64,000 bases of DNA. Origin: Octopus vulgaris. Lineage: Eukaryota. The stretch's first letter is position 1; each line of letters starts with the position of its first letter. The notes beneath the pieces are model-generated. The model saw only the letters and a program-made list of their open reading frames with translations. It was not told the origin of the DNA and searched no databases. The DNA lies in the NCBI GenBank assembly GCA_951406725.2, contig OX597836.1, positions 46,748,001 through 46,812,000 on the forward strand, written 5' to 3'. The position numbers and the translations under genes were made by a program. Below, piece by piece: positions 5,069 to 55,300 of the stretch.

Positions 5069-5099
5069 TATATGTATAACATTATTTGTTTCTAAAATA

Positions 5100-5531
5100 T
5101 TTGAAGATACAGGTGATTCTATGCACACAGGATATGCTAAGGTCTAATCTAATCTAATATTAATTAGGTTATTCTTATTTACCTACTTACAAATTTCATA
5201 AATTTCCATACAACATAGTTTGCGTCCATATTGGCTATCTTTATGGCGGAGCTCCCCATACTATATCCCAATTAAGGCTAAATTTACTATCACTATACTT
5301 AAGTTCCCCAATTTTACTAGATAATGATGTACTATTAGCTTTATGTTTAAGTTTAAAAGATGCAAGATGGTTATTAACATGTGACTTCATGCTTTTTTGA
5401 GCACCCGATGTAAACAAAGTTACTAGTTTCAGTCAATACTGTACATTTGTACACAACATTTTGGGCTAAACAATGACTTAATAACGGGCATTGAGATCTT
5501 ATCCTACAATTGCAGCTGGGGATATTATTGC

Positions 5532-28984: not shown

Positions 28985-29400
28985 TTGGATTGGTGTCCTC
29001 AGCTGGAGTGTCGCTTTCACTACGTTTTAGCTGTTGTATTCTCCTGCCTTCTTCAGGTGTCTTGTGTTGAATTCAGTTGCTGTATGCTTGTGATATGCAT
29101 AGCATGGTAGATAAAGACGTTGGTTCACCTAGAGGTACTAAGATCAATCCCAGGCAATGCACTAAGGTAATTCACAAAAAAAAAATCAATGGAAGCAAAA
29201 AGAAAATGTCACAGAAAGCAGAGAACAGAGGGAGAAAAATGTACTCCCCCCCCGACCCGTGGATCAGGGGTAGGTGCAAAATTCTGATACAACAGAATTC
29301 AGTAGAAGACACCTGAAGAAGGGTAGAGCATGCAACAGCTGAAATGTAGTGAAAATTAACAATTGAAATGAGGACATCAGTCTGACTGATATAAATAGTA
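28985..29400. mobile_element. Two diverged, oppositely oriented PLE-type termini, each with a degenerate hammerhead motif
   Basis: Minus 29018-29059: cac-CTGAAGA-aggc..gct-AAAA-c-GTA-gtg. Plus 29310-29351: cac-CTGAAGA-agg..ct-GAAA-t-GTA-gtg. Confidence 0.65.
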
Positions 29401-29895: not shown

Positions 29896-30450
29896 CACAT
29901 CTCACTCCTCTGGAACTTCACTATTCAAACTGACAGAAAGATAGTTGCAAATAGGCCAGACATCATATTGAAAGACTTCAGACAAAGAATATGCCTCCTC
30001 ATTGATATGACTGTCCAAGTCAACATAAATTTATCTGTCAAGACCTACCAAAATCTGAGTAAATATAAAGATCTTGAAATAGAAATGAGCAAAATGTGGA
30101 ACCTCAAGACTAAAACAATACCTGTTGTCATAGGTGCCCTAGGAACGATAGCAAAAGGGACTGATTCCAACCTAGCTCAGACACCAGGAAATACCAAAAT
30201 GGCAGAAATTCAAAAGATAGGAATTGCCCATATCCTACACAAAATACTTTCCATGTAATCTCAAGTTTTAAAACAAACACAATTTTCTTATGGTTTCTTA
30301 AACATTCTCTAGAACAAAACTATGTACAAAACCAAATATATGGCTCCCTAGGCATAACACTAGCATGAACATCCAACTTGTCTCTTGAGGTCTCTGGGTG
30401 AGACTTGGAGCCAACTTGTACAAATGTAAAGCAAAAGTCAAACATAAGAT

Positions 30451-31889: not shown

Positions 31890-32064
31890 ATATATGTATA
31901 AAAAAATATATATGAAAATACAAAATGGGACAAGAACGCAAAACACTCACAGAGATGACACAAAAAACGGACGGGTCCAAATGACCCGTCCGTTATTTTG
32001 TGTCGTCTCTGTGAGTGTTTTGTGTTCTTGTCCCATTTTGTATTTTTATATATATTTTTTATAC

Positions 32065-32070
<6 letters not shown>
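31890..32070. repeat. About 88-bp inverted repeat with 5-nt loop, made of a PLE-type terminus
   Basis: Arms at 31890-31977 and 31983-32070. Arm sequence is related to 12260-12330 and 46435-46510. Confidence 0.9.
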
Positions 32071-32100
<30 letters not shown>

Positions 32101-32108
<8 letters not shown>

Positions 32109-32765
32109 GTAATAATTTGAATTCGCCTTAAATGGTCCCTTTGCATACTGAACACTTGGTGAAATTGATTAATAATTAATTAATTTTACCCTCAATTGTT
32201 GAAATTATAATTAATCTCCCTCTAATTAATGCTTCGGATTTTACCGAAATAAGCATAGTGTTTGCTGATTTTAACCCACGCTGGTGGAAAGGGGAGAACA
32301 GAAATTCTTCGCTTGCATATTTGAGTTTGTTGGCACTGTTAGTTACGAGCAGATCTTCGAAAGCGATGAGAAGCCGAAAGGGTATGCTCTCACTTTCAGT
32401 GTTTTCAAATCCAAACCAAGGAGTTTCTGAGCTGATGATAGAAGTGTCGTGTTGACTAATCTTGAAACGTACGTTCTCAAATAACCTTTGCATTTGATTT
32501 TTTGATGTCTTTACCCCCAAACTTTCGTGAGTTGAGTTGCGCAAACACTATATGAGAGAGGTTTTCTTTAAGTATTAGAAATAGTTTTAAAAAAGTTTTT
32601 TAGCTGCTATTTCTAATGAGTTCAGTATGCGGCAAAGTAATTTATTTTACTAAGCCCTTTTATATAATGTAATAATTTGAATTCGCCTTAAATGGTCCCT
32701 TTGCATACTGAACACTTGGTGAAATTGATTAATAATTAATTAATTTTACCCTCAATTGTTGAAAT
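32101..32765 (+). mobile_element. Retrozyme-like / non-autonomous PLE-type element: 105-bp terminal direct repeats, 560-nt unit, central hammerhead
   Basis: Direct repeats at 32101-32205 and 32661-32765, (TA)n on both sides, hammerhead motif at 32428-32479. Confidence 0.75.
32428..32479 (+). ncRNA. Type I hammerhead ribozyme motif
   Basis: UGAG-CUGAUGA-[uagaagugucguguugacuaaucuu]-GAAA-C-GUAC-GUU-CUCA. Helix I UGAG/CUCA, intact core, palindromic stem-III loop, predicted cleavage after 32475. Confidence 0.8.
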
Positions 32766-32787
32766 ATATATATATATATATATACAC

Positions 32788-32886
<99 letters not shown>

Positions 32887-33442
32887 GGGTTGATTCATTT
32901 GACTAAATAAAATTCTTCAAATAGTGCCCCAGCATGGCCGTAGTCTAAATGACTGAAATGAGTAAAAGGTCGAGGATAAAAGATATACATACATGTTTGT
33001 GTGTGTATATAACTCATATAAATATACATGCACACAAATGCAAACACACAAACTTACACACACACACACAGGCACATGCACACACACACATGCACACATA
33101 CAAACACACACACACACGTATCCGTGGGTAATATTTATAAACAGACATTTGTATTAGAACAATTACATATATATGTATATCTACGAGTGTGTAAGTGTAT
33201 GTGTGTGTGTGTTTGTAAATGTGTGTGTGTGTGTGAAGGAGTCTTTGAGTGCGAGTGTTTCAAGCAATTTACTCATCAGAATAGATGTAATTAGTGTCCA
33301 GTTGGCTCTTATTAGATTTGATCAACAAGCTGGCCGCGATCCAATCTGCTTAATCTTTGATTATATCCACGAAATCAATCTAGAATTCTTCCAGAATTCA
33401 CTTCCTTCACCTGATCTCTTTTATCATTAACCGAATTACCAT

Positions 33443-33900
33443 TATTGTCTCAAACATTACAATCATCAACTCAGAAATTACGATTATTGGCTCAAAAATT
33501 ACAATTGTCAACTCAAAAATTACAATTATTGGCTCAAAAATTACAATTGTCAACTCAAAAATTACAATTATTGGCTCAAAAATTACAATTGTCAACTCAA
33601 AAATTACAATTATTGGCTCAAAAATTACAATTGTCAACTCAGAAATTATGATTATTGGCTCAAAAATTACAATTGTCAACTCAAAAATTACAATTATTGG
33701 CTCAAAAATTACAATTGTCAACTCAAAAATTACAATTATTGGCTCAAAAATTACAATTGTCAACTCAAAAATTACAATTATTGGCTCAAAAATTACAATT
33801 GTCAACTCAAAAATTACAATTATTGGCTCAAAAATTACAATTGTCGACTTCTTTGGTGGGGAGATATTGTCTGCTACCTTGTTTCAAATTAAACCAATAT
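33443..33900 (+). repeat. 42-bp minisatellite (dimer of related 21-mers), about 9 units, inside a sequence also present unexpanded at 31146-31270
   Basis: Unit ggctcaaaaattacaattgtcaactcaaaaattacaattatt. Confidence 0.95.
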
Positions 33901-34578
33901 AATAAAGAATCTGACATGGGTTGTGAGCCTTTATAGTAGAGGTTCAATCTATCTGACAGTCTGCCTTACAATTTCCCTCACAGAACTACAGTAAAGGGCT
34001 CTTGACCATCTTCCTCCCCCATCCCATCATCATCATCATCATCAGCAGCATCATTATCATCAATTCATGTCCATTTTCCATGCTGGCATGGGTTGGACAC
34101 TTTGGCAGGAGCTAGCAAGACAGAGGGCTGCACTAGGCCCTAGTCATCTGTTTTGGTATGGTTTCTATGGCTGGATGCCCTTTCTAATGCTAACCACTTT
34201 ACAGGGTGTACTGGGTGCTTTTTTACATGGCACCAGCATGAGTGCCTTCGATTCTTTTTTATGTGGCACTGGTACAAGTGATTTTCATGTGGCACCAGCA
34301 CAGGTGCATTTTACATGGTGCCATGTAGAATTGAACATGGAGCCATGTGTTTGAAAAGTAAATTAACCTACTCCTGTGGGTGCAGGCATGGCTGTGTGGT
34401 AAGAAGCTTGTTGCCCAACCACATGATTCTGGGTTCAGTCCCACTGCATGGTAACTTGGGCAAGTGTCTTCTACTATAGCCTCGGGCCGACCAAAGCCTT
34501 ATGAGTGGATTTGGCAGACAGAAACTAAAAGAATTCCATTGTATATATGTATGTGTGTATGTATGTATATATATATAG

Positions 34579-36446: not shown

Positions 36447-36483
<37 letters not shown>

Positions 36484-36538
36484 ATACAAAGTATTAATGA
36501 GATAATCAGAGAAGGAAAGAAAGAGTGATATATATATG

Positions 36539-36601
<63 letters not shown>

Positions 36602-36739
36602 TATATGTATATATATATCATCATCATCGTCGTTTAACGTCCGTTTTCCATGCTAGCATGGGTTGGACGGTTCAACTGGGGTCTGGGAAGCCAGAAGGCT
36701 GCACCAGGCCCAGTCTGATCTGGCAATGTTTCTACGGCT

Positions 36740-36790
<51 letters not shown>

Positions 36791-36981
36791 AGAGAGAGAA
36801 AGAGAGAGAGATAAATAGATAAGATAGATGGATAGATAGATACATACATACATATCAGTATATATACGTAATTAATTAGCAAAACAGAGAAAAATAATAA
36901 GAAAAAAAAAACAATGTGAGGGCATAGTACATACAAAGTATTAATGAGATATTCAGAGAAGGAAAGAAAGAGTGATATATA

Positions 36982-37617: not shown

Positions 37618-38154
37618 TAAACAAGTCAAATTGCGATAAAATAAAAATAATTTTTATCGCTGGTATTTCTAGCACAAGCCATATATTTTTCATATATCAG
37701 TACATTAAGGCGAAATATGTGCTAGGAACACAGAAGCTAGATAAATTTAGTGAAATAAAGATAAAAACATTTACTAACTCGGTTCCTCTTAGACTGCAGT
37801 TTCTTTCTTTTCAGCAATAAAGATAATTTATTTGCTCAGGGAGAATTCATCGGTAAGAGCCCTGTTGTTCTGAGATCCTAACTCACTAGAAGCATGTGCT
37901 TCTAATGATTTACTCTCTCTAACTAATCAGATCACTGCGCAGACTCAGAACGTCCCGACAAAACTAGGGATTTCTGGTATATCGTCTAGCGCTCAAAATT
38001 TATCGAGAAATATGTAAACAAGTCAAATTGCGATAAAATAAAAATAATTTTTATCGCTGGTATTTCTAGCACAAGCCATATATTTTTCATATATCAGTAC
38101 ATTAAGGCGAAATATGTGCTAGGAACACAGAAGCTAGATAAATTTAGTGAAATA
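37618..38154 (-). mobile_element. Retrozyme-like / non-autonomous PLE-type element: 140-bp terminal direct repeats, 397-nt unit, central hammerhead
   Basis: Direct repeats at 37618-37757 and 38015-38154, (TA)n on both sides, several internal hairpins, hammerhead motif at 37786-37859 (-). Confidence 0.75.
37786..37859 (-). ncRNA. Type I hammerhead ribozyme motif (U4C core variant, long stem II)
   Basis: Minus strand: CUCUUA-CCGAUGA-[auucucccug-agcaaauaaa-uuauc-uuuauugcu-gaaaagaaa]-GAAA-C-UGCA-GUC-UAAGAG. 6-bp helix I, GUC site, palindromic UGCA loop. Confidence 0.78.
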
Positions 38155-38174
38155 TATATATATATATATATCTT

Positions 38175-46223: not shown

Positions 46224-46295
46224 GGCTCTGATGAGGCTTATATAAGGGAATTGAATTGTTTATATATCAAAACAGGCTGAAACAAACTGTTGGCT
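46224..46295 (+). ncRNA. Degenerate hammerhead motif
   Basis: GGCU-CUGAUGA-GGC[..]GCU-GAAA-C-aaacu-GUU-GGCU. Helix I relies on G-U pairs. Confidence 0.5.
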
Positions 46296-53606: not shown

Positions 53607-54148
53607 ATATACTGATGATCTTGCTATTATAGCAGATTGTGTAACAAAACTAGAAAAGAAATTCCTGGTGTGGAAGCAAAACTTGGAATTGAAGGGCCTA
53701 AAGGATAACTTAGCAAAGACTAAGGTTCTAGTAAGCAAGAAAATGGACAGGACCCTATATCTATCAGACAAATGGCCCTTTTTGATTTGTAGAAAAAGTG
53801 CATGCAGGAATTCCATTTGGTGAACCATGGACACACAAGAGGACTAGGGGAATACTAGGGAGGTTATCAGAGAGAGTAGTGTTTGTATGTGGAAGATGTA
53901 CAAGAGCCACAAAGACTACAGATACATGGGGAATTGATCTTCTCAAATGCCTTGGAGGATCTTTAGACGTATCATATAATACCTGCAATATAGGGGACCT
54001 AAATGGCAGTAGGGACGGATGTACAGAAAGTGTAGTGTAGGAAAAGGATAGAGAAAATTTAGAGAGCTTTACCTCTGTTGACAGCCAAAGGTTTCCTCCT
54101 CTGTGTGAAAGGAAGATTGTATGCTGCATGTTTACAAACAGCAATGTC

Positions 54149-55300
54149 ACATGGTAGTGAAACATGGTAATGAGATATGTTACATGGTAGTGAGACATGC
54201 TACATGGTAGTGAGAGATGTTACATGGTAGTGAGACATGCTACATGGTAGTGAGACATGTTACATGGTAGTGAGAGATGTTACATGGTAGTGAGACATGT
54301 TACATGGTAGTGAGAGATGTTACATGGTAGTGAGACATGTTACAGGGTAGTGAGACATGTTACATGGTAGTGAGAGATGTTACATGGTAGTGAGACATGT
54401 TACATGGTAGTGAGACATGTTACATGGTAGTGAGACATGTTACATGGTAGTGAGACATGCTACATGGTAGTGAGACATGTTACATGGTAGTGAGACATGT
54501 TACATGGTAGTGAGACATGTTACATGGTAGTGAGACATGTTACATGGTAGTGAGACATGTTACATGGTAGTGAAACATGCTACATGGTAGTGAGACATGT
54601 TACATGGTAGTGAGACATGTTACATGGTAGTGAGACATGTTACATGGTAGTGAGACATGTTACAGGGTAGTGAGACATGTTACATGGTAGTGAGAGATGT
54701 TACATGGTAGTGAGACATGTTACATGGTAGTGAGACATGCTACATGGTAGTGAGACATGTTACATGGTAGTGAGAGATGTTACATGGTAGTGAGACATGT
54801 TACATGGTAGTGAGACATGTTACATGGTAGTGAGACATGTTACATGGTAGTGAGACATGCTACATGGTAGTGAGACATGTTACATGGTAGTGAGAGATGT
54901 TACATGGTAGTGAGACATGTTACATGGTAGTGAGACATGTTACATAGTAGTGAGACATGCTACATGGTAGTGAGACATGTTACATGGTAGTGAGACATGT
55001 TACATGGTAGTGAGAGATGTTACATGGTAGTGAGACATGTTACATGGTAGTGAGACATGTTACATGGTAGTGAGAGATGTTACATGGTAGTGAGACATGT
55101 TACATGGTAGTGAGACATGTTACATGGTAGTGAGACATGTTACATGGTAGTGAGACATGCTACATGGTAGTGAGACATGTTACATGGTAGTGAGAGATGT
55201 TACATGGTAGTGAGACATGTTACATGGTAGTGAGACATGCTACATGGTAGTGAAACATGTTACATGGTAGTGAGACACGCTACATGGTAGTGAGCCATGT
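54149..55300 (+). repeat. 20-bp minisatellite (tacatggtagtgagacatgt), about 57 copies
   Basis: 55 in-register units at 54181-55280 plus degenerate flanking units. Confidence 0.98.

Follow-up and report, generated by a model that had tools for sequence, protein, structure and literature searches.

Non-LTR retrozymes of animals are described as non-coding units with a GC content below 50%, many copies, and neither a primer-binding site (PBS) nor a polypurine tract (PPT), and they carry a type I hammerhead with a weak, palindromic stem III in a self-paired fold (PMC7229834; Li, Clavereau and Pollet 2026, bioRxiv 10.64898/2026.07.22.740005). Their units form arrays and measure 170-400 nt (PMC7229834) or 51-972 bp (Li 2026), and the model proposed for them predicts copies of more than one unit at new loci. 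The parts of these two papers at our disposal mention no (TA)n flanks. A retrozyme is called 'active' when at least two tandem units each contain a hammerhead (Li 2026). When nine Xenopus units were tested, eight did not cleave (Li 2026), and an axolotl retrozyme hammerhead with a U.U pair like the one described below does cleave (PMC7229834). The retrozymes of plants are LTR elements, in which terminal direct repeats enclose a non-coding core; each LTR contains a type III hammerhead, and a PBS, a PPT, and duplications of 4 bp are present as well (Li 2026, PMC7761336).

Several clades of Penelope-like elements offer a second point of comparison. Those of the Hydra clade encode a reverse transcriptase and endonuclease, carry a type I hammerhead on the sense strand, and insert in (TA)n in 26 of 27 families, one of which comes from Octopus bimaculoides (PMC8557442). 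In our own count, made for the Hydra clade only from supplements S1 and S2 of that paper, a U.U base of stem II is found in 14 of 25 hammerheads and a GUU site in 10 of 25; a single host accounts for 11 of the 14 families with U.U. Naiads of octopus use (TA)n as well. Non-autonomous elements of the Chlamys clade such as MRC1 are short and non-coding, are bounded by pseudo-LTRs, and were once mistaken for LTR elements; they match the 3' end of their autonomous relatives, the clade has a microsatellite bias, and most Chlamys elements have no hammerhead (PMC8557442). Insertion by a purified Penelope system did not need hammerhead cleavage (PMC11167929).

Here we analyse a 560-nt repeat unit in a 64,000-nt stretch of Octopus vulgaris DNA (the window), which an earlier note, made from the letters alone, had described as a retrozyme-like element. 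We conclude that it represents a new family whose design is already known from non-LTR retrozymes and non-autonomous Penelope-like elements. Full-text searches of the literature listed no description of a cephalopod hammerhead-bearing, Penelope-dependent mini-element, and the word 'ribozyme' is absent from PMC13282606; the family may carry another label in repeat catalogues (Repbase, Dfam). The finding extends hammerhead-bearing, Penelope-dependent mini-elements to an octopus genome.

Anatomy of the element

The features of the element are collected in Table 1. Its direct repeats proved to be as the earlier note had described them, identical at 105 of 105 bases with a period of 560 nt, and they cannot be extended on either side. 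Since their outer letters belong to TA runs (six on the left, one on the right), the element-specific repeat R is slightly shorter. TA runs lie directly outside both repeats, again as claimed. The locus thus reads R-U-R, or 1.19 units, with GC fractions of 0.28 and 0.36 (the latter that of U), below 50%. Both borders of R abut TA-like letters within the unit, here and in a second element of the window (element 1, below), which suggests that the ends are determined by microhomology with the target. The microsatellite target leaves no readable duplication, as seen in the TA runs on both sides here and in the loose contig ends of sequencing run X3 that enter TA runs.

Table 1. Coordinates of the element and its parts, numbered from the first letter of the window
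Feature	Position	Strand	Basis
Left (TA)n run, likely target site	32071..32106	.	sequence reading
R copy 1 (pseudo-LTR); exact match including TA letters is 32101-32205	32107..32204	+	105/105 identity
5' arm of an 11-bp helix pairing R with 32620-32630	32143..32153	+	predicted, p>0.9
14-bp hairpin in R, two G.U pairs on the plus strand	32158..32190	+	predicted
Open frame, 123 codons between stops, which we do not regard as a conserved gene	32179..32547	-	ORF list, variants, protein searches
Unique part U, 462 nt, GC 0.36; R+U is the 560-nt unit	32205..32666	+	
Interrupted hairpin; apex with GAGCA/UGCUC (32347-51 / 32385-89) and cc-gaaa-gg	32326..32409	+	predicted, copy variants
Type I hammerhead (predicted), with stem I of 4 bp, core CUGAUGA, stem II of U.U followed by 3 pairs, GAAA, a weak stem III, and a GUU site	32428..32479	+	descriptor match, predicted
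Self-complementary octamer ACGUACGU (palindrome)	32467..32474	+	sequence reading, fold prediction
Predicted cleavage site, which we take to lie after 32475	32475..32476	+	hammerhead numbering
AT-rich hairpin, 12-bp outer stem	32574..32617	+	predicted
Internal TATATA at the U-to-R junction; letters differ among copies	32661..32666	.	contig alignments
R copy 2, likely 3' end of the element	32667..32764	+	polarity inferred from hammerhead strand
Right (TA)n run, interrupted twice by CA, end approximately 32881	32765..32881	.	sequence reading

Plant-type LTR elements and TRIMs are expected to have TG..CA ends, a PBS, and a PPT. A terminal-repeat mini-element of this or another class, either a TRIM-like LTR element or one dependent on a tyrosine recombinase, in which the hammerhead is incidental, would account for a short unique part enclosed by identical terminal repeats and for the TG at bases 2 and 3 of R. 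However, R ends in GAAA rather than CA, no LTR ends, PBS, or adjacent PPT are visible on reading the borders of the element, the window contains no tRNA gene, and traits of Penelope elements include both the (TA)n target and the type I hammerhead, so that we regard such an origin as quite improbable. The element has terminal direct repeats, a non-coding core, and a hammerhead in common with plant LTR retrozymes (Li 2026, PMC7761336), but possesses a single type I motif outside the repeats. The features tested fit a non-autonomous Penelope-type element, being a partial tandem with pseudo-LTRs, a TA target, and many copies.

As a separate candidate, a SINE or Pol III promoter was rejected, as there is no match to the consensus patterns of box A or B, the plus strand has many T runs, and no tRNA gene is present. 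A near-perfect palindrome of approximately 180 bp (31890-32070) has the left TA run in common with the element.

The hammerhead motif

The hammerhead was found where the earlier note had placed it on the plus strand, with its stems, core, GAAA, and palindrome as stated. Stem I is formed by UGAG and CUCA (32428-31 / 32476-79), the core CUGAUGA occupies 32432-38, and GAAA occupies 32464-67. The description of the core as canonical holds for its letters, but not for the first pair of stem II, which is U.U, for the triplet, which is GUU, or for stem III, which is not predicted to form in the monomer. The octamer at 32467-32474 is predicted to form an 8-bp helix between two RNAs with an energy of -9.8 kcal/mol; a hairpin within a single RNA is not predicted.

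A type I descriptor, composed after the motif had been seen, matched one of 3000 dinucleotide-shuffled units and none of 30 shuffled windows. Restricted to the canonical core, it matches the real window twice, at 32432 and at 46228. The motif is beyond chance by the count in shuffled units. Rfam gave no hammerhead match at E<=10 for 32200-32660, and none is present among the 150 of 164 matches listed for the whole window.

The earlier note had made its reading depend on conservation of the motif among copies. None of the 50 listed variable places falls within the 27 positions of the core and stems I and III, which is suggestive only (P=0.07). The loose ends of run X16 include an intact core with an altered stem II, and a core altered at the free seventh position. 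When the unit is folded freely the motif is sequestered and no hammerhead forms, and stems I and II are predicted to cost 7.6 kcal/mol; taken by itself, the region of the hammerhead has a fold no better than those of its shuffles.

The hammerhead occurs once per unit, in U, and a single hammerhead outside the repeats means that this copy could not excise a monomer by itself. Having one hammerhead where the definition of Li 2026 asks for two, the element is not filed as an active retrozyme.

Copies in public sequencing runs

The element was found in 20 of the 24 public runs listed, and these 20 span four organism labels and 11 studies. In the four runs examined, 4779, 1815, 588, and 111 contigs aligned to the 560-nt unit at 80% likeness, and all 30 bins of the unit were covered in each of the four. 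Depth summed over contigs reached 1.6 million in run X1, a figure that is not a copy number. These data support a multi-copy family, and we infer at least hundreds of variant copies, presumably dispersed. None of the runs containing the element is recorded as RNA; eight are guessed to be RNA, and of these X3 shows the presence of the element rather than its transcription. Five pattern scans of viral, metagenome, and prokaryote collections returned no matches.

In many contigs the end of U is followed by R after a short spacer that varies (12 of 31 junction rows listed). This junction is present in any 1.19-mer and so is no proof of arrays. Of the contigs of run X3, one enters a TA tract at 32209 and a second does so just past 32192 (among 24 listed of 231 loose ends); evidence of TA targeting is confined to this locus and a few such loose ends. 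In all four runs there is a 2.5 to 5.8 fold drop in depth across 32214/32215, at a place that is also a divergent stretch. As summed contig depth depends on fragmentation, the depth of R relative to U was not used to deduce the structure of copies.

Predicted RNA structure and coding capacity

The unit is predicted to fold at -154.7 kcal/mol with 62% of its bases paired (z=-6.6), and z ranged from +1.35 to -3.39 in the 14 of 18 control stretches that lack simple repeats. Of the nearby hairpins that the earlier note had pointed out, the GAGCA/UGCUC pair set is predicted with p>0.9, while cc-gaaa-gg amounts to only 2 bp. In other copies the interrupted hairpin to which both belong tolerates base changes as well as a deletion of 17 nt. 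A second ribozyme at its apex was considered and rejected for now, because the apex has many substitutions and the 17-nt deletion, which lies between two 6-nt repeats, and has no Rfam match.

Substitutions among copies broke a predicted pair in 8 of 40 cases where 15.2 were expected (P=0.004), the 40 being those listed of 79 that passed the filter (12 of 17 indels were listed). Nine pair-keeping substitutions exchange G.U for Watson-Crick pairs or the reverse, which is workable on the plus strand. Applied to the fold of the minus strand, this test gave 7 against 14.4 expected and was equally significant; the test therefore shows structure, not strand.

The minus-strand open frame was the feature by which the earlier note thought its own reading might fail, as a conserved protein that explains the sequence. 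A small protein-coding repeat with an incidental hammerhead would make sense of the length of this frame, which is reached in only 0.6% of 2000 shuffles and for which we cannot offer an explanation beyond chance. Its variants, however, do not behave as those of a gene: among 37 listed substitutions 9 are synonymous, 26 missense, and 2 stops, the stop at 32317 accounts for 18-22% of depth in three runs, and 7 of 8 listed indels shift the frame. No family exceeded the Pfam cut-off, a word-indexed protein search found no homologue, and the Atlas held no usable match. A HMMER search of 1.84 billion proteins returned one match, a pyrin protein with 15 repeats, which was dismissed as an artefact of summing over repeats since its best single match scores 24 bits. 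A conserved protein is thus not borne out, the coding explanation is very improbable, and the element is likely non-coding. Its frames contain no reverse transcriptase bearing a GIY-YIG endonuclease at its C terminus, unlike those of an autonomous Hydra-clade element.

Proposed mode of copying

As judged from its sequence, the best reading is that the element would work like a non-LTR retrozyme. It has in common with these the non-coding unit of low GC content without PBS or PPT, the many copies, the self-paired fold, and the type I hammerhead with a weak palindromic stem III, and its length beyond one unit agrees with their model of copies at new loci (PMC7229834, Li 2026). It differs from them in its (TA)n flanks and in having 1.19 units with one hammerhead in place of an array, and its 560-nt unit is longer than the 170-400 nt of PMC7229834 and within the 51-972 bp of Li 2026. 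We think it probable that the locus is a recent-looking copy of a non-autonomous repeat that relies on a Penelope-type reverse transcriptase and endonuclease, has (TA)n as its target, and is copied from a circular or multimeric RNA template.

By this route the plus strand would be transcribed by read-through, and two hammerheads meeting in a tandem array, or in two RNAs through the palindromic stem III, would cut after 32475. The unit-length RNA would then be closed into a circle. A Penelope-type endonuclease would nick a (TA)n run, and reverse transcription would proceed from the R end, cross the cut site, and continue for more than one full turn, to stop at the internal TATATA, which would be able to pair with the TA target. 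The product would be R-U-R, 1.19 units, between TA runs. With its one hammerhead, the copy would be an offspring rather than a source of circles; and since it spans the predicted cut site in mid-unit and runs past one turn, its template would have been circular or a longer RNA that had not been cut, as opposed to a linear monomer produced by cutting.

The same element and partner could also operate without a circle. An R-U-R read-through transcript would be copied directly, with an internal start where the second R ends and a stop at the TATATA before the first, so that both ends are fixed, and the hammerhead would be a passenger or a trimmer of RNA. A lizard Penelope element behaves in this manner in vitro, with internal initiation and hammerhead-independent insertion (PMC11167929), and there is one hammerhead per insertion and TA-like microhomology at both R borders, both here and in element 1. 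The fall in depth at 32214/32215 in all four runs and the X3 contig that enters a TA tract at 32209 also agree with fixed ends, but the fall coincides with the stretch that diverges among copies, and copy number cannot be read from contig depth. Moreover, the palindromic stem III suits a dimer, and the first R-U-R would still require a copy of more than one unit. We consider direct copying unlikely, though less so than the other alternatives above.

Given a Penelope-type partner, whether for the circular template that we prefer or for direct copying, the Hydra clade would be the leading candidate, with somewhat less than half of our expectation, the remainder going to Naiad, Neptune, or others. 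The element has in common with this clade (TA)n insertion, a type I hammerhead on the sense strand, the U.U pair and GUU site that are frequent in it, and presence in octopus, and lacks its reverse transcriptase and endonuclease frame (PMC8557442). Its likeness to the Chlamys mini-elements lies in the short non-coding unit and the pseudo-LTRs. In Hydra-1_Obim the hammerhead lies approximately 30 nt from the right end, where here the distance is approximately 290 nt, outside the repeat, and by eye its 3' end and its hammerhead, which is without U.U, differ from ours. Two words of 11 and 10 nt that its 5' end appears by eye to have in common with the element, at window positions 32380 and 32304, in opposite order, may be a weak lead. 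Five short words of the element were not found in the available text of the PMC8557442 supplement, where line breaks can hide matches. We treat a Hydra-clade partner as a lead.

Given its identical repeats, the abundance of its family, and the occurrence in octopus of a partner clade that targets (TA)n, the element makes a convenient system for the question of how Penelope pseudo-LTRs arise, by copying of circular RNA or by internal initiation on an uncut transcript. A wider proposal would hold that octopus genomes contain several unrelated and very abundant ribozyme elements, array-free 1.2-1.4-mers with a single hammerhead that cuts only intermolecularly via its palindrome, all dependent on the Hydra clade for insertion into (TA)n. 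We regard it as unlikely. If true, these array-free elements would be a large, unrecognised source of circular RNA and would name a retrozyme-partner pair outside vertebrates.

Element 1 and other features of the window

Element 1 (37620-38160) has a period of 397 nt, direct repeats of approximately 135-144 bp, and TA flanks. On its minus strand there is a type I hammerhead motif that starts at 37853. Here stem I has 6 bp, the core reads CCGAUGA, stem II is long, the loop UGCA is palindromic, and the site is GUC. The claim of a second unit of the same design is thereby upheld. The two elements had been said to lack similarity by eye, and this was confirmed in the orientation that matches their hammerheads (best local score P=0.84), but not in the other orientation, in which an AT-rich patch of 30 nt stands out (P=0.006). 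The longest word common to both, of 10 nt, was rejected as a sign of relatedness, being expected by chance (P=0.38). The earlier note had gone on to propose a diverse, genome-wide population of TA-targeting ribozyme elements; the ribozyme motif, TA flanks, multiple copies, and non-coding nature stand, and the existence of several such families in the genome is a reasonable extension from two loci.

A third pair of direct repeats flanked by TA (36480-36974, period 447, repeats of approximately 50-60 bp) has other repeats nested within it and no match to the hammerhead descriptor. On the plus strand at 46224-46295 there is a type I hammerhead-like motif with a GUU site, approximately 90 bases before a TA run, and this motif possibly marks the 3' terminus of a Penelope-like remnant. 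Three similar CUGA-GA motifs at 29313 (plus), 29056 (minus), and 14510 (minus) are presumably decayed minimal hammerheads of Penelope-type ends. A degenerate minus-strand frame at 5090-5520 resembles by eye the linker and endonuclease of the Hydra clade (CxC..CP..C, VY, YIG); neither Pfam nor database searches supported this fragment, and a search with it gave no candidate, which is weak evidence.

Other repeats of the window include a plus-strand fragment at 29896-30255, which has many relatives in Octopus bimaculoides (top matches 74-76% identity) and which we take to be the endonuclease end of a non-LTR retrotransposon; these matches point to an octopus as the probable host. A DDE_1 transposase remnant is found on the minus strand at 577-942 (Pfam E=4.8e-06). 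Tandem arrays lie at 33350-33933, with a period of 21/42 bp, and at 54144-55300, with an apparent period of 20 bp.
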